Under the pieces are notes generated by a model, which was given only the letters and a program-made list of their open reading frames with translations, had not been told where the DNA came from and ran no database searches. This document shows, one piece after another, positions 2,020 through 12,604 of a stretch of DNA of 12,943 nucleotides; positions within the stretch are counted from its first letter, which is position 1, and the number at the start of each line of letters is the position of its first letter. The DNA is taken from the NCBI GenBank assembly GCA_003223835.1, contig QHWR01000042.1:1-12943 (forward strand). Reading direction: 5' to 3'. Source of the DNA: Acidobacteriota bacterium. GTDB lineage: Bacteria > Acidobacteriota > Vicinamibacteria > Vicinamibacterales > 2-12-FULL-66-21. A program made the translations under genes and the position numbers.

Positions 2020-2093
2020 GCGGCAGCTATAAACCATTACCCTCGGCATCATCTGTGGAGACGGCCCGCCCGAGGCGGGCAGTGAGGATGGCA
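2020..2093 (+). promoter_or_regulatory. Putative promoter and RBS region for the small secreted protein (TATAAA at ~2027-2032; GAGG at 2084-2087)
   Basis: cagcTATAAAccatt lies ~60 bp upstream of the ATG, and gtGAGGatggcaATG places GAGG 6 nt before ATG 2094. This is sequence inspection only. Sigma-70-like consensus elements are weak in such GC-rich genomes. Confidence 0.3.
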
Positions 2094-2552
2094 ATGAGAC
2101 GAGCACTCGCGCTTGTGACGGCGGCCGTTCTGATCGGCGGCGCGCAGCCAGCCCTGGCGGTGTCGACGCCGACGATCAACGCCGTCACCTCGGGGATCGA
2201 GCTGTGCCCGCAGACCGTCTGCGGCGCGGCGATCTTCGCCGGCGTGCTGAAAGGTCAGGTCGGATCGAACCTCAACGCGCTGGGACTGTTCGCGGTCGCG
2301 GTCACGCACGAACCCCTGCCGGATCCGTTCCAATCCGCCGCGATCACCGGCGGCGTGTTTCAGTTCCAGGTCGGCCTGCGCCAGATCAAAGGCGTCGTGC
2401 TGGGGGGCACGCTGTTCAACAACGGCGACAACACGTTCACGGTGCGCGCCGTTCTCGGGATCACGAGTGGCGGCAGCGGACAGGTGATCTACACGGGCCT
2501 GCTGAACCACAACGTCTTCCCGCCGACCGTGATCGGGACGTTGACGCAGTAA
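2094..2552 (+). CDS. Small secreted hypothetical protein (152 aa) with a cleavable signal peptide; Gly/Val/Thr-rich with two Cys
   Basis: MRRALALVTAAVLIGGAQPALA-VSTP is a classic signal peptide ending in AxA. The ORF track starts the ORF at GTG 2055. I prefer ATG 2094 because of the GAGG spacing and because the signal peptide begins immediately. The stop TAA is at 2550-2552. I recognise no family motif. Confidence 0.6.
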   Translation: MRRALALVTAAVLIGGAQPALAVSTPTINAVTSGIELCPQTVCGAAIFAGVLKGQVGSNLNALGLFAVAVTHEPLPDPFQSAAITGGVFQFQVGLRQIKGVVLGGTLFNNGDNTFTVRAVLGITSGGSGQVIYTGLLNHNVFPPTVIGTLTQ

Positions 2553-2561
2553 GACGAAATA

Positions 2562-2632
2562 CCAAATGCTAAATGCCAAAGAGACCCTGATTCGGATCCC
2601 TTTTGGCATTTGTCATTTGGCATTTGGCATTG
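2562..2632. terminator. AT-rich hairpin between convergent genes; arms built from heptamer tandem repeats (CCAAATG/CTAAATG versus TGGCATT x4)
   Basis: The left arm ccaaatgctaaatgccaaa (2562-2580) is near-perfectly complementary to tttggcatttgtcatttgg (2602-2620), giving a ~19-bp stem with 1-2 mismatches and a 21-nt loop. The right arm continues with two more TGGCATT units through 2632. It lies between the stop of the 2094 gene (2552) and the stop of msrA (2636). The local AT-richness is exceptional for this window. Confidence 0.6.
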
Positions 2633-2635
2633 ACG

Positions 2636-3286
2636 CTAGGTCTTTACAGCGACGCCCACCGGACAGCTCACCCCCGTGCCGCCGAGGCCGCAGTAGCCGG
2701 CCGGATTCTTCGCCAGATACTGCTGGTGGTAGTCCTCCGCGTAGTAGAACTCCGGCGCGTCGACGATCTCGGTCGTGATCCGGCCGTAGCCGGCGGCGGT
2801 CAGCATCCGCTGATACGCGTCGCGCGAGCGTTCCGCCGCGTCGCGCTGCGCCGGGGAGAAGACGTAGATCCCGGATCGATACTGCGTGCCGGCGTCGTTC
2901 CCCTGCCGCATGCCCTGTGTGGGATCGTGACTCTCCCAGAACACCTTCAGCAGATCGTCGTAGGAGATCTTGTTGGGATCGAACACGACGAGGACGACTT
3001 CCGCGTGTCCCGTCATGCCGCTGCACACCTCGCGGTACGTCGGATTCGGCGTGATCCCGGCCGCGTAGCCGACCGCCGTCGTATAGACGCCGGGGAGCTG
3101 CCAGAACTTGCGCTCCGCCCCCCAGAAGCAGCCGAGCCCGAACATCGCGCGCTCGAGCCCGGAGGGAACCGTCCCCTGCAGCGGCGCGTCGAGCACGTAA
3201 TGCTTCGCCGGCACCGGCATGCGATCGTCGCGCCCCTTCAACGCCTGTTCGCGCGTGGGCATCTTCAGCTTGTTTTCGAACATCAT
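2636..3286 (-). CDS. msrA: Peptide methionine sulfoxide reductase A (MsrA)
   Basis: The translation contains the MsrA active-site signature GLGCFWGAE plus [12 protein letters not shown] and [10 protein letters not shown], and full length is consistent with MsrA. I chose ATG 3286 (MMFENKLK...) as the start. The ORF track's 18-aa N-terminal extension (start 3340) is encoded entirely by the heptamer repeat array and overlaps the upstream gene's stop. Confidence 0.9.
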
Positions 3287-3291
3287 GTTTT

Positions 3292-3327
3292 CTGCCTTCC
3301 TGCCTTCTGCCTTCTGCCTTCTGCCTT
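3292..3327. repeat. Heptanucleotide tandem repeat (CTGCCTT)x5 on the + strand, i.e. (AAGGCAG)x5 on the minus-strand mRNA, in the 45-nt spacer between the zinc-ribbon/TM gene stop and the msrA start
   Basis: The + strand reads tctgccttcctgccttctgccttctgccttctgccttccg. On the minus-strand transcript this is a purine-rich run of AAGG(C)AG units ending 5 nt before the msrA ATG. Confidence 0.9.
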
Positions 3328-3332
3328 CCGCA

Positions 3333-4427
3333 TTACCCATTCCCCTGCGCCAGCAGGAAGATGATGATCAGGATGATCACGCCCAGCACGATCAGCGCGA
3401 TTTTCCACGGGCTCTTCGGGTACTGCCCGGCCATCCGCCCGCTGTGGCCGTTCACGATCAGCTGATAGACCTTCGCGGCGTACGTGTACGTCAGCAGCCA
3501 GACCGGCACCAGGATGTGCTTGAACGTCTGGCCCGAGTACGTCGGTTGGATCTGCAGGTTGCGAAACGTGTCGCCCGGAATCTGCGCCGCGCAGAGATCG
3601 TAGAGCTTGCGCGTCATCTGCTCCTGCGACGCCTTCGCCGCGTCGAGCAGCACCACCTGGTAGTGCTCGACGATGAAGCCGGACAAGTACGCCGTGTCGT
3701 ACGGCGTCAGCTCGTTCGTCATGAACGGCTCCACCTGTCTCAGCAGCGCCTGGGAGACGCCGTGCGTCCCCGGCACCGGCTCGTCGTCGAAGAAATGACG
3801 CACGACGCCGGACGCGGGTTCCCAGCGGACCTGCCGTACCTGGCGCGTCTGCGTGCGGCCGCCTTCCATGTACGACTCGGTCGTGTAGTAGTAGTGGCCC
3901 GCTTCCGCGTTCCACGGACAGACGACTTGCGCGTCAAACGTCCAGTACGGGATGTAGACGCCCCGCACCGTATCCACGAGCGCGCGCGTTTTGAGCGAGC
4001 CGGGCGCGAGCCACTTGCTTTTGTACCACCGGCGGATCTGTTCGCGCACGGTGCTTTCCGGCACCTTGAACGGGAGCAGACTCTGCGGCCGGATCGGCGC
4101 CTTGATTTCCTGGTAATCCACCAGCTCCGGCGATCCGCAGAATTCGCAGCGCTGGCCGACGCGCGCCGGATCGAACACCGACACCGCCTTGCAGCTCCGG
4201 CACTGCACGGTCCGCCGCTCGACTTGCCAGCCGCGCGCCTCGTCGGGCAGTTCTCGCAGCGCTTTCACGAGATCCAGCTCGACGATCGCGCCGGCCTGCG
4301 TCACGTCGTACGGCGCTTCCGTGCCGCAGAACGGACAGACCAGCTTCTGCTTGCCCGGATTCCATTCAGCCTGCGCGCCGCAGGCGGGACAGGGATGTTT
4401 CTCGATCGCGGAAACGGGGTCGGGCAT
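3333..4427 (-). CDS. Double zinc-ribbon protein with a C-terminal transmembrane helix (function unknown)
   Basis: N-terminal [23 protein letters not shown] and [24 protein letters not shown] give two CxxC...CxxC zinc ribbons. A ~250-aa central domain follows. The C-terminus [20 protein letters not shown] is a TM helix. The start lies 14 nt after the stop of the SPFH gene on the same strand, suggesting co-transcription. Composition is coherent and not Arg-biased. Confidence 0.7.
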
Positions 4428-4441
4428 TTAAACCGAGAACC

Positions 4442-5470
4442 CTATTTCGACAGATATTCATCCAGCGCCGACCGTTTCACGCGCCAGGATGTGCCGATCT
4501 TCTTCCCCGCCAGTTCACCCGACTGAAGAATCGTCATGACGTCGGATTCGGGAACGCCCAGCGCCTTGGCGACGTCGGCGGGCGACAGCAGCTCCCCGGT
4601 CGCATCCCCGGGCGCCGCGGCGGGCGCCGGCGCCTTGACGGCGACGCCCGCGACGCCTCCCTGCTGCTGCATGATCTGCTGCGCGATCGACAGGCCGACG
4701 GCCATCTCGGTCGCCATGCCGCCCGCCGAGCCCCCGCGCTCCATGCCTTGCGCCATCTGGAATTTCACGTAGTCGTTCAGGTTCCCGATCGCGGCCATGC
4801 TGGATCGCTTGTCGATCGCCGTTTCGACCTCCGCCGGCACCGACACGTTCTCGACGACGAACGTGGGCATCTCGATCCCGTACTTCGCGGTGATGACGGG
4901 GTTGATGAGCGGCAGCAGCGCCTGCCCCAGTTCCGAGTAGCGCTGCGCGACGTCGAACACGGGAATCTTCGCCGTCGCGATCGCCTCGGAAAAGACGCTG
5001 ACGACGCGGGATCGCATCGTATCGGCGAACTCGTCGAGCCGGAAGTTCTGATCCGATCCGGCGACCTCTTTCAGGAACAGCTTCGGGTTCGTGATGTGGA
5101 AGTCGTACGTGCCGAACGCGCGCGCGCGGACGACGCCCAGCTCCTGGTCGTGCATCATCACCGGATTCGCCGTGCCCCACTTGTTGCCGGTGAACAGCCG
5201 CGTGTTGAGGAAGTACACGTCCGCCTTGAACGGCGAGTTGAAGCCGTACTTCCAGGATTTCAGCTTGGTCAGGATCGGAATGTTGTCCGTCGTCAGCGTG
5301 TGCTTCCCCGGCCCGAACGTGTCGCCGAATTCGCCGAGGACGATGAGCTGCGCGCCGTTCTTGATCGCTTTGTCATCGTCGGGGAATCGAAACGAGAGCG
5401 TATCGCGCGAGTCGTCGGTCCATTCGATGACGTCGATCAGCTCGCCCTTGATGAAGTCCATCAAACCCAT
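4442..5470 (-). CDS. SPFH/band-7 superfamily protein (YdjI / COG4260-like) fused to a C-terminal excisionase-type helix-turn-helix domain
   Basis: The N-terminus MGLMDFIKGELIDVIEWTDDSRDTLSFRFP matches my memory of the conserved start of COG4260 ('virion core protein'-annotated) SPFH proteins. The C-terminus LLSPADVAKALGVPESDVMTILQSGELAGKKIGTSWRVKRSALDEYL fits the excisionase/HTH_17 pattern (L..ee.A..LgvS..tv.....G.lp..kiG...r..r..L.e.l). A Gly/Ala/Gln-rich linker lies between them. I chose ATG 5470, which has GGAG 9 nt upstream. The track's start at 5563 would add 31 aa encoded by the upstream heptamer repeat. Confidence 0.7.
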   Translation of the reverse strand: MGLMDFIKGELIDVIEWTDDSRDTLSFRFPDDDKAIKNGAQLIVLGEFGDTFGPGKHTLTTDNIPILTKLKSWKYGFNSPFKADVYFLNTRLFTGNKWGTANPVMMHDQELGVVRARAFGTYDFHITNPKLFLKEVAGSDQNFRLDEFADTMRSRVVSVFSEAIATAKIPVFDVAQRYSELGQALLPLINPVITAKYGIEMPTFVVENVSVPAEVETAIDKRSSMAAIGNLNDYVKFQMAQGMERGGSAGGMATEMAVGLSIAQQIMQQQGGVAGVAVKAPAPAAAPGDATGELLSPADVAKALGVPESDVMTILQSGELAGKKIGTSWRVKRSALDEYLSK

Positions 5471-5485
5471 GGTGAAAACTCCGAT

Positions 5486-5580
5486 CGGACAGATGGCGGA
5501 TGGAAGATGGTGGATGGCGGAACGGCGGCTGATAGGGGCATCGGATTTTCCGTCATCCGCCATCCGTCATCCGTCATCGG
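5486..5580. promoter_or_regulatory. Divergent intergenic region containing inverted arrays of heptamer tandem repeats: (GATGGCG/GATGGAA/GATGGTG/GATGGCG) versus (TCCGTCA/TCCGCCA/TCCGTCA/TCCGTCA)
   Basis: cagatggcggatggaagatggtggatggcggaacgg (5490-5525) and ccgtcatccgccatccgtcatccgtcatcgg (5550-5580) are imperfect reverse complements, each made of about four 7-bp units, separated by ~25 nt. The region lies between the SPFH gene start (5470) and the multi-zinc-ribbon gene start (5608). An AT-rich stretch aactagtatcgtattctaaactgagcc (5581-5607) directly precedes the + strand ATG and may be a promoter or leader. Confidence 0.7.
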
Positions 5581-5607
5581 AACTAGTATCGTATTCTAAA
5601 CTGAGCC

Positions 5608-6330
5608 ATGGCCCAGAGCGCCGGAAGCCTGCATTGTCCCAACTGCGGGGCGCCCGCGGCGGCGGCCGACGGGCGGTGTCCGTACTGCCGCGCGCGGCTG
5701 GCGACGGTGAGTTGTCCCTCGTGTTTCGGGCTGTTGTTCGAGGGCGCGGCGTACTGCCCGCACTGCGGCGCCCGGCGCGAGCGGCGCGCGGTCGGCGAGC
5801 CGGCCGGCGCCTGTCCCGCCTGCCGGAAGACACTCGCCCGGGTCGACGTCGGCTCCGCCACGCTGTTCGAGTGCGAGGGCTGCGACGGGATCTGGCTCGA
5901 CGCGGAGGGCTTCGAGAAGCTGTGCGCCGACCGCGAAGCGCAGGCGGCGGTCCTCCATCGCATCACCGCCCTCCCGCACGCGGCGACGGGGCCGGTCCGC
6001 TATCGCCCGTGCGTGCGGTGCGGCAAGCTCATGAACCGCGTGAACTTCGCGAAGGCGTCAGGCGTGATCGTGGACGTCTGCCGCGGGCACGGCACGTTCC
6101 TCGACGCCGGGGAGCTGCACCAGATCGTCACGTTCATCCACGGCGGCGGGCTCGATCGCGCGCGCGAACGCCAGCTCGAAGACCTGGCCGAACAAGAGCG
6201 CCGCCTCCGATCGCTCCAGAACGTTCAGCAGCGCACCGAGATGGACATGGGAGGCCTGTCCATCGAATTCAGCCGCGGGACGCACGTGCTGTCCTTCGAA
6301 CAGCTACTGCGGCATTTATTCGAATCCTGA
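5608..6330 (+). CDS. Multi-zinc-ribbon protein: two N-terminal CxxC pairs plus two zf-TFIIB-like (PF13453-type) zinc-ribbon modules
   Basis: CPNCGAPAAAADGRCPYC and CPSCFGLLFEGAAYCPHCG are zinc ribbons. CPACRKTL...CEGCDGIWLDAEGFEKL and CVRCGKLMNRV...VDVCRGHGTFLDAGELHQIV each match the zf-TFIIB-like pattern C..C.....[5-10]...C..C.G.WLD.gEl. The C-terminal ~50 aa is charged, helical and probably coiled-coil. The stop TGA is at 6328-6330. Confidence 0.75.
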   Translation: MAQSAGSLHCPNCGAPAAAADGRCPYCRARLATVSCPSCFGLLFEGAAYCPHCGARRERRAVGEPAGACPACRKTLARVDVGSATLFECEGCDGIWLDAEGFEKLCADREAQAAVLHRITALPHAATGPVRYRPCVRCGKLMNRVNFAKASGVIVDVCRGHGTFLDAGELHQIVTFIHGGGLDRARERQLEDLAEQERRLRSLQNVQQRTEMDMGGLSIEFSRGTHVLSFEQLLRHLFES

Positions 6331-6333
6331 TCG

Positions 6334-6361
6334 GTTCGGGGTTCGACCCCGAACCCCGAAC
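6334..6361. terminator. GC-rich hairpin (12-bp perfect stem gttcggggttcg/cgaaccccgaac with a 4-nt loop ACCC) between convergent genes; each arm consists of two heptamers
   Basis: Read directly: gttcggggttcg-accc-cgaaccccgaac. It sits between the zinc-ribbon gene stop (6330) and the msrB stop (6362). There is no U-tract on either strand, so it may act as an RNA-stability or Rho-dependent element instead of a canonical intrinsic terminator. Confidence 0.6.
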
Positions 6362-6763
6362 TCATTTCGGCTCGAATCTCAGCGCGATGCCGTTGATGCA
6401 GTAGCGTTGCCCCGTCGGCGGCGGGCCGTCGGGGAACACGTGACCGAGATGGCTGCCGCACCGGGCGCAGTGCACTTCGGTCCGCGTGCCGTAGCTCCGA
6501 TCCACGGTCTCGCCGATCGCGCCCGCCGTCGGCGCATGGAAACTTGGCCAGCCGGTGCCCGAGTTGAACTTCGTGTCGTTCGTGAAGAGTTCCTGTCCGC
6601 AGCCCGCGCAATAGAACGTGCCGGCGCGCTTCTCGGTGTTCAGCGCGCAACTGCCCGGACGTTCCGTCCCGTGCTCGCGCATGATGTGGTACTGCTCGGG
6701 CGTCAGCATGCGCCGCCACTCTTCCTCCGTCCGCTGGACGGGGAACGTCTCCGTTTTGTTCAT
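6362..6763 (-). CDS. msrB: Peptide methionine sulfoxide reductase B (MsrB/SelR), zinc-binding type
   Basis: CAGCGQELF...[11 protein letters not shown] and [35 protein letters not shown] carry the MsrB signatures: two CxxC zinc-binding pairs, the GWPSF motif and the catalytic RYCINS-like motif. AGGA lies 8 nt upstream of the ATG. The start is 12 nt after the asmA stop on the same strand. Confidence 0.9.
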
Positions 6764-6774
6764 CGGCTGGTCCT

Positions 6775-8367
6775 CTAATCCTTCGACCCGAACACGCGGC
6801 CGACATCGAGACCGAACTTCGGGTCCTTCCGCATGCCGTTGATCTTAATCGGAACGACGGCCCCCGCGCCGTTCTTCCGAAACAACGGGTCGACGGCCTT
6901 CAGCAGCAGGCGCTTGACGCCGGTCGTGCCGGTCGCTTCGGAGATCGGCGCCTGCATCCGGAGCGTGCCGGCGAAGTCGAGCGCCTCGCTCCGCAGCGCA
7001 TACGTGCCCGCGAGCGTGATCTCCGCGCCCGGGACCCCGAACTGAAGGTTCGCGAACCGCACCACTCCGTTGCCCATCGTGAATCGCCCGCGCATGTCCG
7101 ACAGCACCCGGCCTACCGGCTCGTCTTTCTGCTTCCCTTGCCCGTGGCGGCTGAGATCGGTGATCTTGCGCTGCACTTCGGCGTCCGTGAATCGTGCGTC
7201 GTCCACGGCGAACGTCCCGTCGAGACGCAGGCGATCGGCGACCTTGCGGTGTTCCGGCGGCAGCACCAGCTTCGTCTTCATCGTCAGGCGTCCCTCCATC
7301 ACGGCCTTGGAGGACTTGACCGCGAGCTTCAGCACGTCTTCGACGCGCCCCTTCGGCATCACGACGTCGAGGTCGACGGTGCGGCCGTGGCCATGCGGCC
7401 CGCCGACGATCGCGCCGCGCGCGGTCAGCGACGTCTGGAGAAACTGCGCGTCCACCTGTTCGAGGTACGTGTCGCCGTTCGTGCCGTCCACGATGGCGCG
7501 AAAACGCGTGTCGAGCGGCACGCCCTGTCCCGCGACGTCTACGCTGAAGTCCGGTGTCTTCGTGGTGCCGTTGACGCGGATTCGCTCGAGCCGGCCGTAG
7601 AAGTTGCCTTTCGACGACAACGTCCCGCCCAGACCGTCGATCGTGTTCAGGTCCGCGTGGGTGAAGTCGTACTTGCCGTCGAGCGGCGAAGATCCGGGGC
7701 CGTCCGCGATCCACGGGCCGAACGTGCCGGTCGTCTCGATGTCGCCGCGCGGGATCGGATTGGTCAGCGTCGCCCGAAACGGCATGCGTCGATCGAAACC
7801 CAGCGAGTCGACGCGGAGATGATGAATCGTGAAACGTTTCGGTTCCCTTCCGGACTGCTTCGGCAGAATCGTCAGGACCGCATCGTCCGAGACGAGATGG
7901 TCGATGAGGACGGGGCCCTGCCGATCGGGTTCTTTGCCGCGCGCCCCGTCCTTGTCGTTGTCGTTGTCCTTGTCCTTGTCGTCCTCGTGCCGGTTCAGCC
8001 CGCCCGGCGGGATGTTGATGCGCAGCCCTTCCAGCATGACGCTCCTGAACCGCCGCGGCCGATGGAGAAGGCCGAGCACTCCGCCTTCCGCATAAAAATG
8101 CTTCACTTCGATCAATGGCGGGCCGCCGGTCTGACGCTTGTGGTGGACGCGCAGGCCGTCGCCCGTGATGCTCAGCGTCGGAAAGGTCGAGACGTGAAAG
8201 CTTTCCAGCTCGACGCGGGCGTCGAGGTGTTGACTCATCGCGTCGAGAAGTGCCGCGTTGAGGACGCTGGTGCGGGAGCCGCCGACGGCGACGATCCAGA
8301 GCGTGACGAGCACGCCGCCGAAGATGGCGATGAACCACCGCGCAACGCGCAGAGCGGGTTTACGCAC
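6775..8367 (-). CDS. AsmA-family outer-membrane biogenesis protein (530 aa) with an N-terminal TM anchor
   Basis: N-terminus [30 protein letters not shown] is a TM anchor. A large, soluble, beta-rich periplasmic region follows, with the general architecture and Gly/Asp/Thr-rich composition of AsmA-like proteins. An internal low-complexity [11 protein letters not shown] run is encoded by a hexamer DNA repeat at ~7948-7988. The family call rests on overall architecture and on remembered N-terminal similarity. Confidence 0.65.
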
Positions 8368-8539
8368 TACCTGATCACTGCAAGACGCGTGCTGGAAAAC
8401 CAGGACTCATTACTGTCGCGCTGTTCGGTCGAGGCCGGGCCGTCGTTGATCTAATGGCGCACCGGGGAGGGCCGAGGTGTAGTAACTCCGGCGCACCCAT
8501 CAGCCTACAGTCATCGACGTCGCCGGAGGAGGCGAGGCC

Positions 8540-10510
8540 ATGGCTAGAAGTCAGGTCTTTGTCAGCTACAGCCACAAGGACGCGAAGTGGCTGGGCGAGC
8601 TGAAGAAGTTTCTTACGCCTCTCGTTCGGGACCAGCCGATCGAAATCTGGGAGGACACGAAGCTTCGCGCCGGCGACAAGTGGCTGCCGGGGATCGAAGG
8701 CGCCCTGAGCTCCGCGAAGGTCGCGGTGCTCCTCGTCAGCGCGAATTACCTCGCGTCGGACTTCATCGCGTCCCGCGAAATGCCCCCCATCTTCGAGGCG
8801 CAGACGCGAGAGGGGCTCCGGATCATCTGGATCCCGATCAGCGCCAGCGCGTACGCCGTGACGCCGATCAAGAACTTTCAGGCCGCGTCCGACCCCGCGC
8901 GGCCGCTCGATACGTTCACGGCCGCCAAACGCAACCAGCTCTGGGTGGAGATCTGCGACGCGATCGTCGAGGCGATGGAGCTGCCGGCGGCCGCTGCTGA
9001 AACCCCGGTCGAGGACGATGGTCCGGTCGAAGACCGAGTGGTGCTGCTGTACAAACGCGGCGCCCAGCCCGACGAACAGCTGCTCCACGCGCTCGAGACC
9101 GAGCTTGGCAGGCGCGGGGTTCCTGTGTGGATCGATCGGCACCTGCGCGTCGGGATGGATTGGGCGCGCGCGATTTCCGACCGCCTCGAACGGGCGGTGG
9201 CCGTGATCCCGCTGCTTTCCGCGCAGTCGGTGCACAGCGAGATGCTGTCCTACGAAGTGCAGGTCGCGCATCAGGCTCGGCAGCGCAACGGCGGCCGTCC
9301 GAAAATCCTGCCGGTGCGCGTCCAGTTCGACGACGCCCTCGTGTCGCCGCTCGACATTCTCAGTCCGCTGCAGCACGCGGTGTGGACGGGCGGTCAGGAC
9401 ACGCCGCGCGTCATCGCCGAATTGAACGCCGCCCTCGCGGCGGAGTCGCACGAGATTCCGCGCTACGTCCCGCCGGTCGGCGGCGCCCTGCCGCTCGACG
9501 ACGAGTTCTACATCGCGCGGCAGGCGGATACGGATCTGGCCGCGGCGATCCGGCGGAAGGAAAACATCATCCTGCTGAAGGGCGCGCGTCAGATGGGCAA
9601 GACGTCGCTGCTCATCCGCGGCTCGAAAGAAGCGCGGACGGCGGGCGCCCGCACCGTCTACATCGACTACCAGAAACTGAACCTCACGCAGCTCGTGTCG
9701 CTCGACGTGTTCTACCGCAGCCTCTGCGAGTGGCTGGCGGAGGAGCTCGAGCTCGAGGTGAGCGTCGAGTCCTTCTGGAACACGCGGCGCACGGCGAACA
9801 TGAACTTCGAGCGGTTCCTCGAGCGCGAGCTGCTCCCCCGGGTGGGCGGCCACTTCGTTCTCGCGATGGACGAGACGGACCGGCTGTTCGACTTTCCTTT
9901 CAAGGACGAGTTCTTCGGCCTGCTGCGGTCCTGGTACAACGAACGCCAGATGAACCCGGACTCGGCGTGGCGGCGCATGACGATCCTGATTGCCTACGCG
10001 ACGGAGCCGCACCTGTTCATCTCGAACCTGAGTCAGTCGCCGTTCAACGTCGGCCTGGCGCTCGATCTGGCGGACTTCACGCCCGAACAGACCGGGCGGA
10101 TGAACCAGCTATACGGGAGTCCTCTGACCGCGCTGTCAAAGGTCACGTCGTTCCACAACCTGGTGGGAGGGCAACCGTATCTCGTCAGGCGCGGCCTGTT
10201 CGAGATCCGCACGAAGAACTACTCCATCGAGCAGTTCGAGGAGCTCGCCGTCAAAGACGATGGACCGTTCGGCGATCATCTGCGCCGCATGCTCGTCGTC
10301 CTCGCCCGCAATCCGCCGCTCTGCGAGGCGATGCGGGAGCACCTGCGCACGCGCCGGACCGTCGCGACCGCGGACTTCTACCGCCTGCGGCGCGCGGGCA
10401 TTCTGGTCGGCGGGAGTCCGCTGGAAGCGAGGCCGCGCTGCCGTTTGTACGCCGAGTACCTGCAGCGACATCTGGACGCGGTCCAGAGCGCCGCGACCGT
10501 CGCGGGGTGA
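8540..10510 (+). CDS. Tandem TIR domains fused to an AAA_35-type (PF14516-like) P-loop NTPase domain
   Basis: GGAGGAGG lies 8 nt upstream of the ATG. TIR domain 1, VFVSYSHKDAKWLGELKKFL...IWEDTKLRAGDKWLPGIEGALSSAKVAVLLVSANYLASDFIASREM, matches the bacterial TIR_2 pattern (FISYsh.D......L...L......W.D...l..G......I..ai..s...i.lvS..y..S.wc..E). A second TIR-like module runs ~VVLLYKRG...VWIDRHLRVGMDWARAISDRLERAVAVIPLLSAQSVHSEMLSYEV. The NTPase region has Walker A ILLKGARQMGKTSLL, Walker B FVLAMDETD, and the family-typical C-terminal GGQPYLV motif. Confidence 0.8.
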   Translation: MARSQVFVSYSHKDAKWLGELKKFLTPLVRDQPIEIWEDTKLRAGDKWLPGIEGALSSAKVAVLLVSANYLASDFIASREMPPIFEAQTREGLRIIWIPISASAYAVTPIKNFQAASDPARPLDTFTAAKRNQLWVEICDAIVEAMELPAAAAETPVEDDGPVEDRVVLLYKRGAQPDEQLLHALETELGRRGVPVWIDRHLRVGMDWARAISDRLERAVAVIPLLSAQSVHSEMLSYEVQVAHQARQRNGGRPKILPVRVQFDDALVSPLDILSPLQHAVWTGGQDTPRVIAELNAALAAESHEIPRYVPPVGGALPLDDEFYIARQADTDLAAAIRRKENIILLKGARQMGKTSLLIRGSKEARTAGARTVYIDYQKLNLTQLVSLDVFYRSLCEWLAEELELEVSVESFWNTRRTANMNFERFLERELLPRVGGHFVLAMDETDRLFDFPFKDEFFGLLRSWYNERQMNPDSAWRRMTILIAYATEPHLFISNLSQSPFNVGLALDLADFTPEQTGRMNQLYGSPLTALSKVTSFHNLVGGQPYLVRRGLFEIRTKNYSIEQFEELAVKDDGPFGDHLRRMLVVLARNPPLCEAMREHLRTRRTVATADFYRLRRAGILVGGSPLEARPRCRLYAEYLQRHLDAVQSAATVAG

Positions 10511-10516
10511 TCGCCC

Positions 10517-12604
10517 ATGCTGACCTATTCCGATCGGATCACGCCCTTGCGGGCCGCGGACAACGCGTTCTTCATCACCGGCGGCACGCTCAGCCCCGGC
10601 GCGGCGAGCTACGTCGAGCGCGCGGCCGATTCGCAGTTGTACGACGTGCTGCTGCGGATGGACTTCTGCTACGTCCTCGACACCCGCCAGATGGGCAAAT
10701 CGTCGCTCATGGCCCGCGCGGCGCATCGCCTGCGCACCTACGCGAACTTCTCGGTCGCGACGATCGATCTGAGCGGGCTCGGACAGACCGTTTCCGCGGA
10801 CCAGTGGTACGACTCGCAGCTCGTCTCGATTGGGAAGGCGCTCAACCTGCAGCGCGAGCTGGAGGAATTCGCGGACGCACACGACCGCCTGGCCCCGCTC
10901 GATCGCTGGAAGCGCGCATTTACCGAGGTCCTGCTGCCCCGGATCGAGACGAACCTCGTCGTTTTCGTCGACGAGATCGACTACGTGCGCAGCCTGCCGT
11001 TTTCGACCGACGAGTTTTTCGCCGGCATCCGCGAGTTCTACAATCGCCGTCCGTTCGAACCGGAGTTCAACCGACTGACCTTCTGCCTGCTTGGCGTCGC
11101 GACCCCTTCGGATCTCATTCGATCGGACGAGACCACCCCGTTCAATATCGGCCGCCGGATAACGCTCACCGACCTCTCGGAAGAGGACGCGGGCATCGCC
11201 GTCCTGCAGACGGGGCTGTCGCGTGACGACCGCGTCGGGCGCGCGATGTTGCACCGGGTCCTCCATTGGACGGGCGGACACCCGTACCTGACGCAGCGGC
11301 TCTGCGAGGAAGCGACCAGGATCGGCCGCGACGGCAAACGGGCGTATACGTCCGACGCGCACGGCGTCGATGCCGCGTGCCACACCCTCTATTTGTCGAA
11401 GAGCGCGCGCGACCAGAACGACAACCTGCGATTCGTCGCCAAGCGGATCGAGGAGTCGGCGAATCCCGTGGAGGCGGTGTCGCAGTACGCGCGGATCCGC
11501 CGCGGCGAGAAGGTCCGCGGGACGGGAACAGAACCGTGGGTCGACGTCCTGCGCCTCAGCGGGATCGCGCGACTCGTGGGCAACGAGCTCGAGGTCAGGA
11601 ACGAGATTTACCGGCGCGTCTTCGACGAGGCGTGGATCGAAGCGAACCTCACGCCCGACGAGCTGCTCCGGCAGCGCCACGCCGCGCGCGATGCGCGGCG
11701 GCGCACGCTGACATATATGACCGCCGTCGGCGCGGTGCTGGCGCTGTTGGTGCTGACGCCTCTCAGTTTTCTCTTGTACTCGAAGAATCGCACATTGGAT
11801 TCCCAGCAGCGGAGCTTGGTGGACGTGACCCAGATGCTCCGACACAGGACGGCCGACCTGCAGGAGCAGCGCGACCGTCAGGCGGACACCAACAGGCAAC
11901 TCGCCGCAGCCGGAAAGGCCAAAGACGCGGCCCTGGCAGAGGCGAACCGTCGCGCCGTCGAAATCGCGCGTCTGAAGCAACAGGTCGAGACGCAGAAGGA
12001 CACCGAGCTGCGCGATCAGTGGAGTCTGTTCAGCTCACGCGACCTGGCCAACGCGTCCCGGTTCGAGCGAATGCGTCAGCCGGGTTTCATCACCGGAAGT
12101 CTGCTGCTCAGCATCGAAGCCGCCGGACGGAGTCCGAGCGCGCCTGCGTACACCGCGCTCGTCGAAGCCATGCAGCTCGCGGCGCCTCGCGTCGGAACAT
12201 CGCACCCGTGGCAAATTCAGACGGGCAGCGTCGGCGCGGCGCTGAGCGGGTCACGCCGCTACATCGCGATGTGGAACGCGGCAGAAGGCATGTGCGTCCA
12301 CAACACCGACACTCCCGGGACCGTCGCGTGTGTGCCTCTCAATGACGCATCGCGCGGTGCCGTGGACGACAACGGCAACCGGACATCTGCAATGCGTGCC
12401 CAGAGGACGCGAGCCTGTCCCGTGCGCCGGCGCGCCCGACGCGATCGCCAAGCCCATCTTCAGCACGGACGGGAAGTATGTCGGCTGGCTCTCGGGCACG
12501 GGGTCGAACCAGCTGCACATCCTGGACCTGGCGACGGGAAGCCCGGCCGACGTTTCCGATCTGAACGCGCTGCTGCCCCGCGAACAAGAGACCGGCTCGC
12601 CTGA
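10517..12604 (+). CDS. AAA_35-type NTPase, then a single TM helix, a long coiled coil and a beta-propeller-like C-terminal region (paralogue of the upstream gene's NTPase domain); the 3' end is disrupted by an apparent frameshift
   Basis: Walker A YVLDTRQMGKSSLMARA, Walker B LVVFVDEID and the family motif HWTGGHPYLTQRL are present. The TM helix is TYMTAVGAVLALLVLTPLSFLLY. It is followed by ~90 aa of Q/R/E/A-rich coiled coil, then IAMWNAAEGMCVHNTDTPGTVACVPLNDASRGAVDDNGN. From ~12400 the annotated frame turns into Arg-rich noise (RTRACPVRRRARRDRQ...) up to the stop at 12602-12604, so the last ~200 nt of this ORF are probably not the real frame. The start is 6 nt after the TIR gene stop, suggesting translational coupling. 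Confidence 0.7.
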   Translation: MLTYSDRITPLRAADNAFFITGGTLSPGAASYVERAADSQLYDVLLRMDFCYVLDTRQMGKSSLMARAAHRLRTYANFSVATIDLSGLGQTVSADQWYDSQLVSIGKALNLQRELEEFADAHDRLAPLDRWKRAFTEVLLPRIETNLVVFVDEIDYVRSLPFSTDEFFAGIREFYNRRPFEPEFNRLTFCLLGVATPSDLIRSDETTPFNIGRRITLTDLSEEDAGIAVLQTGLSRDDRVGRAMLHRVLHWTGGHPYLTQRLCEEATRIGRDGKRAYTSDAHGVDAACHTLYLSKSARDQNDNLRFVAKRIEESANPVEAVSQYARIRRGEKVRGTGTEPWVDVLRLSGIARLVGNELEVRNEIYRRVFDEAWIEANLTPDELLRQRHAARDARRRTLTYMTAVGAVLALLVLTPLSFLLYSKNRTLDSQQRSLVDVTQMLRHRTADLQEQRDRQADTNRQLAAAGKAKDAALAEANRRAVEIARLKQQVETQKDTELRDQWSLFSSRDLANASRFERMRQPGFITGSLLLSIEAAGRSPSAPAYTALVEAMQLAAPRVGTSHPWQIQTGSVGAALSGSRRYIAMWNAAEGMCVHNTDTPGTVACVPLNDASRGAVDDNGNRTSAMRAQRTRACPVRRRARRDRQAHLQHGREVCRLALGHGVEPAAHPGPGDGKPGRRFRSERAAAPRTRDRLA

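Follow-up and report, generated by a model that had tools for sequence, protein, structure and literature searches.

Does an SPFH protein encoded beside a zinc-ribbon membrane protein form a unit of its own with that neighbour, or are both parts of a larger stress-response module? The question is raised by a 12,943-nucleotide (nt) stretch of an Acidobacteriota genome (contig QHWR01000042.1; the whole stretch is called the window), in which a gene for an SPFH protein with a C-terminal HTH_17 domain (4442-5470, minus strand) is followed on the same strand by a gene for a protein resembling Bacillus subtilis YdjG (3333-4427). The initial annotation of the window had placed the two genes at the centre of a membrane-stress module and had extended that module to the methionine sulfoxide reductase (Msr) genes msrA and msrB, an AsmA-like gene and a divergent zinc-ribbon gene. 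All genes that it named were recovered by open reading frame (ORF) analysis and hidden Markov model (HMM) scans, at the same positions and on the same strands. Comparison across phyla shows that the SPFH and YdjG-like genes are a true conserved unit without a local pspA or ydjH.

All positions given here refer to the whole window, which has a GC content of ~65% and whose closest relatives are Vicinamibacterales. Its ten proteins were scanned with Pfam and NCBIfam, and PADLOC models were also run. Transmembrane (TM) segments were called from Kyte-Doolittle hydropathy, hairpins with RNAfold and repeats with Tandem Repeats Finder.

Architecture of the SPFH and YdjG-like proteins

The SPFH protein (342 aa) carries a Band_7_1 domain (PF13421; aa 27-226, ~4793-5392) that scores 235.3 bits against a Pfam cutoff of 24 (E 7.4e-70), joined by a long Gly/Ala/Met/Gln-rich linker to an HTH_17 domain (aa 294-341, ~4448-4591) that reaches the cutoffs of both Pfam (E 3.8e-10) and the TIGR01764 excisionase-type HTH model (1.5e-08). 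The SPFH fold proposed by the initial annotation is borne out by the Band_7_1 match, while the HTH_17 domain had been overlooked. No TM segment was found in the protein (19-residue hydropathy maximum 1.38), which indicates that it is soluble. It aligns with B. subtilis YdjI (SamI) over the SPFH domain, at 25% identity across 269 aa (BLASTP 4e-27), and its linker aligns with the Gly/Met/Gln-rich linker of YdjI. A C-terminal zinc ribbon as in YdjI was not found in the SPFH protein, its position being occupied by HTH_17. A sequence search of the PDB returned no solved relative (best match HflC, E 0.05). Homologs share the conserved N-terminus MGLMDFIKGE, in agreement with a start at 5470.

The C-terminal position behind the Band_7_1 domain is filled differently in different relatives: by a zinc ribbon in Bacillus YdjI, by GYF_2 in a planctomycete pair and by SHOCT in other Band_7_1 proteins (PMC3581485). 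As GYF_2 replaces HTH_17 in the planctomycete pair, the C-terminal adaptor of the SPFH partner can evidently be exchanged. In that planctomycete locus (L090, 6613-9089; L numbers denote comparison loci) the Band_7_1-GYF_2 fusion gene adjoins a YdjG-like gene.

The downstream protein (364 aa) matches B. subtilis YdjG along its full length (aa 8-364; BLASTP 1e-36, 23% identity), and a profile of 37 YdjG-like sequences aligns with YdjG over 320 columns (hhalign probability 100%, E 5.4e-50). Judged by these alignments, the SPFH and YdjG-like proteins are homologs of SamI (YdjI) and SamG (YdjG), respectively, and the kinship with ydjFGHI-type proteins that had been proposed earlier holds for each of them (4e-27 for the SPFH protein with YdjI, 1e-36 for the zinc-ribbon/TM protein with YdjG). 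The double zinc ribbon and C-terminal TM helix described in the initial annotation were also confirmed. Four CxxC pairs make up two N-terminal ribbons (C13/C16 with C31/C34, and C76/C79 with C94/C97); in a set of 37 diverse YdjG-like homologs six of these cysteines (C31, C34, C76, C79, C94 and C97) never vary, and C13 and C16 hardly ever do. The sole hydrophobic segment spans aa 337-364 of 364, and an AlphaFold2 model based on 50 diverse sequences shows a helix there (340-362). Because this single TM segment lies at the extreme C-terminus, the protein is predicted to be tail-anchored, with nearly all of its length in the cytoplasm.

Between the ribbons and the anchor lies an alpha+beta domain with long beta-hairpins and a weak resemblance to PepSY/YpeB (NTF2-like) folds. 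The YdjG-like protein has no Pfam match above threshold, Zn_Ribbon_TF appearing only below it, and a sequence search of the PDB gave no solved relative of it other than isolated zinc ribbons. In a Foldseek comparison with the PDB, the YdjG-like protein returned nothing beyond chance-level matches to long-beta-hairpin pore proteins, which are not taken as a sign of pore formation. The family itself is large, with 7076 representatives of 50%-identity clusters at a threshold of E<=1e-3, of which 966 remain when it is tightened to E<=1e-30.

Conservation of the gene pair

A scan of a one-genome-per-species collection returned 80 loci with a YdjG-like identity of 50-82%, spanning Acidobacteriota, Candidatus Eiseniibacteriota, Beta- and Gammaproteobacteria, Verrucomicrobiota, Abditibacterium and others. 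Many carriers are Gram-negative bacteria from soil. Cultured ones include Comamonas testosteroni (L084), C. aquatilis, Corticibacter populi, Vandammella, Nibricoccus and Verrucomicrobium sp. Among the 63 loci that lie outside the close Vicinamibacterales group and retain enough upstream DNA, all but one encode an SPFH-HTH_17 protein directly upstream of the YdjG-like gene on the same strand (62/63, tblastn). In these 62 cross-phylum pairs the SPFH domain is 65-88% identical across phyla, and HTH_17 is 33-86% identical to that of the window. The two genes are separated in the window by 14 bp, too small a gap for an intervening gene.

The partners known from B. subtilis are missing from this arrangement. 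Neither PspA nor YdjH of B. subtilis gave a tblastn match within 8 kb at E<=0.01 in 90 loci including the window, whereas YdjG and YdjI as queries matched 90 and 73 of the same loci. A reference locus of the B. subtilis type (L089, pspA-ydjG-ydjH-ydjI, from a metagenome), found with the exact ydjG cloning primer (PMC8581546), encodes four products whose Pfam domains are as expected, namely PspA_IM30, Zn_Ribbon_TF, TPM, and Band_7_1 with a zinc ribbon. None of the ten window proteins has a Pfam match to PspA_IM30 or TPM_phosphatase. When the families encoded by the two nearest genes to each side of the pair were ranked by frequency in 70 distant loci, PspA, TPM, PMSR and SelR were not in the top 25. 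Single-linkage clustering of flanking ORFs revealed no universal third partner, in a set contaminated by spurious high-GC ORFs. Genes in the comparison loci were called with a simple ORF picker filtered on GC3 (GC content at third codon positions) followed by Pfam, so that neighbour statistics are approximate.

The SPFH and YdjG-like genes are a conserved pair, and a "PspA-less variant", as the initial annotation had put it, is a fair local description; the absence of the YdjH (TPM) partner had escaped notice. Of the gene order that it had expected relatives to share, the SPFH gene followed by the zinc-ribbon/TM gene is kept across phyla, whereas msrA and the divergent zinc-ribbon gene accompany the pair only in Vicinamibacterales. 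Nothing specific was found in the literature on an SPFH-HTH_17/YdjG-like pair or on a link between msr genes and SPFH proteins.

Comparison with known systems

The closest described relative is the pspA-samGHI operon of B. subtilis (PMC8581546; Ravi et al. 2024, PMC11237479; bioRxiv 10.64898/2026.02.06.704340). In both systems neighbouring genes encode a soluble SPFH protein of the Band_7_1 type, with a Gly/Met/Gln-rich linker and a small C-terminal domain, and a YdjG-type partner that has two zinc ribbons and ends in a TM helix. The central domain of the window partner bears a weak resemblance to the YpeB/PepSY-like domain of YdjG. They differ in that the window pair has neither pspA nor ydjH (TPM) nearby, in gene order (SPFH then YdjG-like, as opposed to pspA-ydjG-ydjH-ydjI), in the presence of HTH_17 where YdjI has its C-terminal zinc ribbon, and in their hosts, which are diderms here; identity is 23-25%. 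Control by sigma-W cannot be assumed to extend to the window, where a TAGAAT -10-like box is all that was found upstream. Since pspA and ydjH in cis and the YdjI zinc ribbon are all missing, the pair is set apart from the Psp-type operon.

In SPFH-NfeD operons (stomatin/QmcA-YbbJ), an SPFH scaffold is likewise encoded beside a membrane partner of its own, by which it is organised at the membrane, although the window protein is of the Band_7_1 type without an anchor of its own and its partner is a tail-anchored zinc-ribbon protein rather than NfeD. The two systems coexist, as some relatives (L006, L007, L012, L015 and L017) carry a separate NfeD/stomatin (Band_7)/PspC cluster at a distance of a few genes. 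With the Psp system of Escherichia coli (PspA-PspF, PspBC) the pair may share its logic only, that is, a membrane scaffold governing a DNA-binding activity under stress. There is no homology, and neither PspA/IM30 nor an AAA+ enhancer-binding protein nor PspB is present here; PspC occurs only in some relatives, several genes off, and the DNA-binding domain would be fused to the scaffold itself.

A proposed role at the membrane

In B. subtilis, YdjI is a soluble protein that recruits PspA, and both depend on YdjG and YdjH for their membrane foci (Scholz et al. 2021, PMC8581546). SamI also restrains signalling by SamGH, and its loss leads to a global change in transcription (Baur et al. 2026, bioRxiv 10.64898/2026.02.06.704340). 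By analogy, the tail-anchored YdjG-like protein probably tethers or organises SPFH oligomers at the membrane. It would recruit them to the inner face of the cytoplasmic membrane, where the resulting complex would sense or buffer membrane perturbation. HTH_17, held on its flexible linker, would then act as an output or adaptor domain, either by binding DNA, with its availability set by whether or not the scaffold is at the membrane, or by docking a client protein. A generic adaptor role is favoured over dedicated DNA binding, because a zinc ribbon, GYF_2 or SHOCT can stand at the same position. In Vicinamibacterales only, co-transcription with msrA would additionally link expression of the pair to methionine sulfoxide repair.

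Several observations weigh against this proposal. The Bacillus proteins share only 23-25% identity with those of the window, and in B. subtilis two-hybrid assays the main contact of YdjI was YdjH, not YdjG; as YdjH is absent here, direct binding between the SPFH and YdjG-like proteins is an assumption. Two YdjG-like genes lack an adjacent SPFH gene, namely the exception among the 63 loci (L044), which has ample upstream DNA, and that of Bernardetia (L091). The negative results for PspA are local, covering the 13-kb window and sequence within 8 kb in the other loci, and a pspA gene may lie elsewhere in the genome. Upstream of the SPFH gene no conserved operator or palindrome was seen across loci, the TAGAAT box being the only recurring element. 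Finally, the window SPFH protein lacks a 10-aa segment (RESQxxQFVY) at aa 43/44 (~5341, an in-frame gap of 30 nt) that is kept in all homologs, including YdjI and a 94%-identical relative (L002). This may be a true in-frame deletion or an assembly artefact, and the window copy could accordingly be impaired or the contig misassembled.

Msr genes and other neighbours in Vicinamibacterales

As the initial annotation had noted, the YdjG-like gene is followed in the minus-strand cluster by msrA, which encodes a peptide-methionine (S)-S-oxide reductase (2636-3286; TIGR00401, 229.4 bits against a cutoff of 108.1, E 2.2e-68). The 46-nt spacer between the YdjG-like stop and the msrA start is filled by a heptamer tandem repeat (TTCTGCC, 5.4 copies, 3290-3328), through which an alternative msrA start at 3340 would read; no terminator-like site was predicted in this spacer. 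On the other side of the pair, beyond a divergent intergenic region of 137 bp (5471-5607), lies a plus-strand gene for a protein of 240 aa with four zinc ribbons (5608-6330). It is followed by msrB on the minus strand, encoding a peptide-methionine (R)-S-oxide reductase (6362-6763; TIGR00357, 155.6 bits against a cutoff of 113.05, E 6.8e-46; SelR 6.5e-46). Upstream of msrB on the same strand, 11 bp away, is a gene for an AsmA-like protein of 530 aa (6775-8367). The convergent msrB gene and its closeness to the gene upstream had been described correctly, while the name asmA given to that upstream gene finds only sub-threshold HMM matches. The window protein, which has an N-terminal membrane anchor (TM aa 7-32), matches YhdP at E 0.2; for the L006 ortholog the values are 3.2e-5 (C-terminus of YhdP) and 4.5e-4 (DUF748). 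None of these matches reaches its Pfam cutoff, and they amount to a weak similarity to the AsmA-like clan (YhdP, DUF748, TamB). Between the convergent four-ribbon and msrB genes, a GC-rich hairpin with a 13-bp stem (6333-6362; -25.9 kcal/mol on the plus strand, -23.9 kcal/mol on the minus strand) is predicted and likely serves as a bidirectional terminator.

Twelve Vicinamibacterales genomes could be assessed on both sides of the pair (the window, L003, L006, L008-L011, L013, L015 and L092-L094). In all twelve msrB lies upstream, and in nine msrA lies directly downstream of the YdjG-like gene, the exceptions being L009, L092 and L094. Where the genes share a strand, the cluster (AsmA-like)-msrB-[zinc-ribbon gene]-SPFH-YdjG-like-msrA looks like an operon; in L003 the AsmA-like gene, msrB, the pair, msrA, a DUF3592-like gene and an MBOAT gene all run in one direction with gaps of at most 84 bp. 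The pair is probably co-transcribed with msrA in this order. These links (msrA, msrB, four-ribbon and AsmA-like genes) are seen by tblastn only in Vicinamibacterales relatives with a YdjG-like identity of at least 69%. The msrA, msrB and AsmA-like links are absent from 70 loci of other lineages, with a partial exception in L080, where msrA lies 3 kb away. The idea that the module as such is wired to Msr repair and to an AsmA-like factor did not hold up for this reason. As all these links fall within one order, common ancestry is an adequate explanation, and it accounts for the msr and AsmA-like links equally well as shared function does.

The divergent gene was correctly described as encoding four zinc ribbons, two of them zf-TFIIB-like. 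The protein has eight motifs (seven CxxC and one CxxH), a DZR match (29.5 bits against a cutoff of 27.3, E 8.3e-07) and two stretches matching Zn_ribbon_TFIIB (PF13453; 43 bits against a cutoff of 22, 2.9e-11), and its TFIIB-type ribbons bear the motif G-x-[WF]-LD-x-G-E/F ahead of a coiled-coil-like C-terminal tail. It does not behave as a part of the module, as had been supposed. The gene is found in ten of the twelve assessable genomes, missing in L003 and L015. Most genomes encode it on the opposite strand, whereas L006 has it on the same strand. The SPFH gene of L093 is inverted and two genes away, yet the four-ribbon gene is still next to msrB there, which indicates that it tracks msrB and not the pair. 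The best 120 homologs are 56-100% identical, and every taxon named by their source belongs to Vicinamibacterales; another homolog, with 36% identity, lies 3.2 kb from the pair in L023. The four-ribbon gene is a lineage-specific accessory. Its candidacy as a substitute for YdjH or as a core member was rejected, given its patchy distribution, variable orientation and nearer tie to msrB.

Other features of these neighbourhoods were also recorded. In two relatives a gene for a 462-aa multi-TM protein stands between the SPFH and YdjG-like genes (L006 8620-10008, L007 763-2151) and matches PMT_2 (GT-C glycosyltransferase-like) at 6.3e-5; the same two carry the NfeD-stomatin (Band_7)-PspC cluster downstream of msrA and a DUF3592-like gene. 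In L092-L094, genes for HtrA/DegP-like Trypsin_2-PDZ proteases lie 2-5 kb beyond msrB, upstream of AsmA-like-msrB, and give the neighbourhood more of an envelope quality-control character.

A possible tie to protein-oxidation repair

Perhaps the pair works together with the Msr enzymes (or DsbC elsewhere) in a single response to oxidative or envelope stress, in which case its redox-repair neighbours would be no accident. We regard this as doubtful, though several lines of evidence point towards it. Within Vicinamibacterales the msrB (12/12) and msrA (9/12) associations persist although the genes beyond the block vary, comprising RHS in the window, DUF3592/MBOAT in L003, NfeD-stomatin-PspC in L006 and epimerase/GT2 in L092 and L094. 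In L093 the YdjG-like gene and msrA are still together despite the inverted SPFH gene, and in L092-L094 the HtrA-like proteases are found further upstream. AhpC/Redoxin genes lie downstream in two loci. Independently of this, in a betaproteobacterial clade of 18 loci, dsbC is found 30-180 bp upstream of the SPFH gene on the same strand. Vicinamibacterales and these betaproteobacteria both have a protein-oxidation repair enzyme encoded directly upstream of the SPFH gene, which is a weak hint, rather than evidence, of a shared theme.

Most lineages, including Verrucomicrobiota, Gammaproteobacteria, Comamonadaceae and other Acidobacteriota, show no such neighbour, however, and every association is limited to one clade, so that inherited gene order explains it equally well. 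The loss of msrA from its position in L009, L092 and L094 argues in the same direction. Furthermore, the enzymes would work in different compartments, as MsrA and MsrB are cytoplasmic (no signal peptide or TM segment) and DsbC is periplasmic.

The layout of the betaproteobacterial clade (L028 5643-9851 and 17 further loci within L024-L076) is dsbC, SPFH-HTH_17, DUF4019, YdjG-like and a short-chain dehydrogenase (SDR) gene. This operon lies on one strand with short gaps, and its DUF4019 protein is secreted and 148 aa long.

The HTH_17 domain and transcription

The tethering proposal leaves room for a more specific reading, in which the YdjG-like protein holds SPFH-HTH_17 at the membrane as a sequestered transcription factor and membrane damage frees the HTH domain to bind DNA and reprogramme transcription, in a one-protein counterpart of the PspA/PspF logic. 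HTH_17 meets the cutoffs of both models, is kept in all 62 cross-phylum pairs and sits on a long flexible linker. The global change in transcription upon loss of SamI in B. subtilis (bioRxiv 10.64898/2026.02.06.704340) would also fit. Such a mechanism is nonetheless unlikely, as domains that do not bind DNA are found at the same position (GYF_2, the YdjI zinc ribbon and SHOCT; PMC3581485). The lack of a conserved operator-like repeat upstream of the operon across loci counts against it as well. HTH_17 domains also serve as protein-binding modules in some systems, which is a further argument against dedicated DNA binding.

The sequence ATTCTA at ~5589-5594 on the plus strand corresponds, in the direction of the SPFH gene, to a TAGAAT -10-like box that recurs upstream across loci. 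Two heptamer arrays (5492-5521 and 5549-5578) fall within the predicted SPFH leader. A consensus sigma-70 scan of 2500-8600 found no full promoter.

The most encompassing version of these ideas would see the pair as a PspA-independent sensor or regulator of membrane integrity, widespread in diderms, in which scaffold assembly is passed on to transcription by release or capture of the HTH domain, and which is coupled in some lineages to repair by Msr (Vicinamibacterales) or DsbC (the betaproteobacterial clade). As a whole we consider this composite improbable.

Other genes and repeats of the window

Beyond the AsmA-like gene, two plus-strand genes encode a TIR-TIR-AAA_35 protein (8540-10510; ThsB-like TIR 2.8e-20 in PADLOC, AAA_35 3.1e-77 in Pfam) and a second AAA_35 protein with a TM segment (10517-12604), which may work as a pair in TIR/STAND-like signalling or defence. 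Some conflict systems do include SPFH proteins and zinc ribbons. That the SPFH and YdjG-like genes belong to an anti-phage defence island together with these adjoining genes is nevertheless highly improbable and was rejected, being largely refuted by gene context. The TIR/AAA_35 genes stand beside the pair in no relative examined, the YdjG-like and four-ribbon proteins lack a meaningful PADLOC match, the three proteins give chance-level scores only (Cas12f zinc-ribbon region, 5.7e-3; mad1 through the HTH of the SPFH protein, 1.3e-3), and the stable chromosomal contexts and the SPFH identity of 65-88% across phyla are unlike those of fast-evolving defence genes.

At the other end of the window, a plus-strand gene (299-1582) encodes a protein of 427 aa that combines an N-terminal TM segment with DUF6531 and RHS/YD repeats but shows no recognisable toxin tip in the window; it may be a truncated RHS element. 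The gap between it and the next gene, which encodes a small secreted protein with a single N-terminal hydrophobic segment (2055-2552, plus strand), contains a tandem array with a 45-nt period (1618-1811, 4.4 copies) and another with a 24-nt period (1855-1979, 5.2 copies). Short heptanucleotide arrays of 2-5 copies occur at 2557-2580, 2602-2631, 3290-3328, 5492-5521, 5549-5578 and 6346-6361, and occupy at least four intergenic spacers of the window with differing units (e.g., TTCTGCC, TCCGTCA, GATGGCG and TTTGGCA). Relatives carry other heptamer arrays at equivalent spots, for example upstream of the SPFH gene in L006, L009 and L059. These arrays are reminiscent of the STRR heptamer repeats of cyanobacteria.

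Implications

The msr link is of local interest, as a possible oxidative-stress operon in Vicinamibacterales. Of wider relevance is that work on Band_7_1-type SPFH proteins has been confined to one organism, B. subtilis, in which they are interpreted in terms of their association with PspA. Many diderm phyla carry the SamI/SamG-like core as two genes that stand alone, with neither pspA nor samH nearby. The fusion of an HTH domain to the scaffold offers a concrete and testable path from membrane state to gene expression, for which tractable cultured hosts exist in Comamonas testosteroni, C. aquatilis, Corticibacter populi, Nibricoccus and Verrucomicrobium sp. The SPFH protein and its zinc-ribbon anchor may thus be the conserved functional unit of this family, and PspA a Firmicute addition to it.

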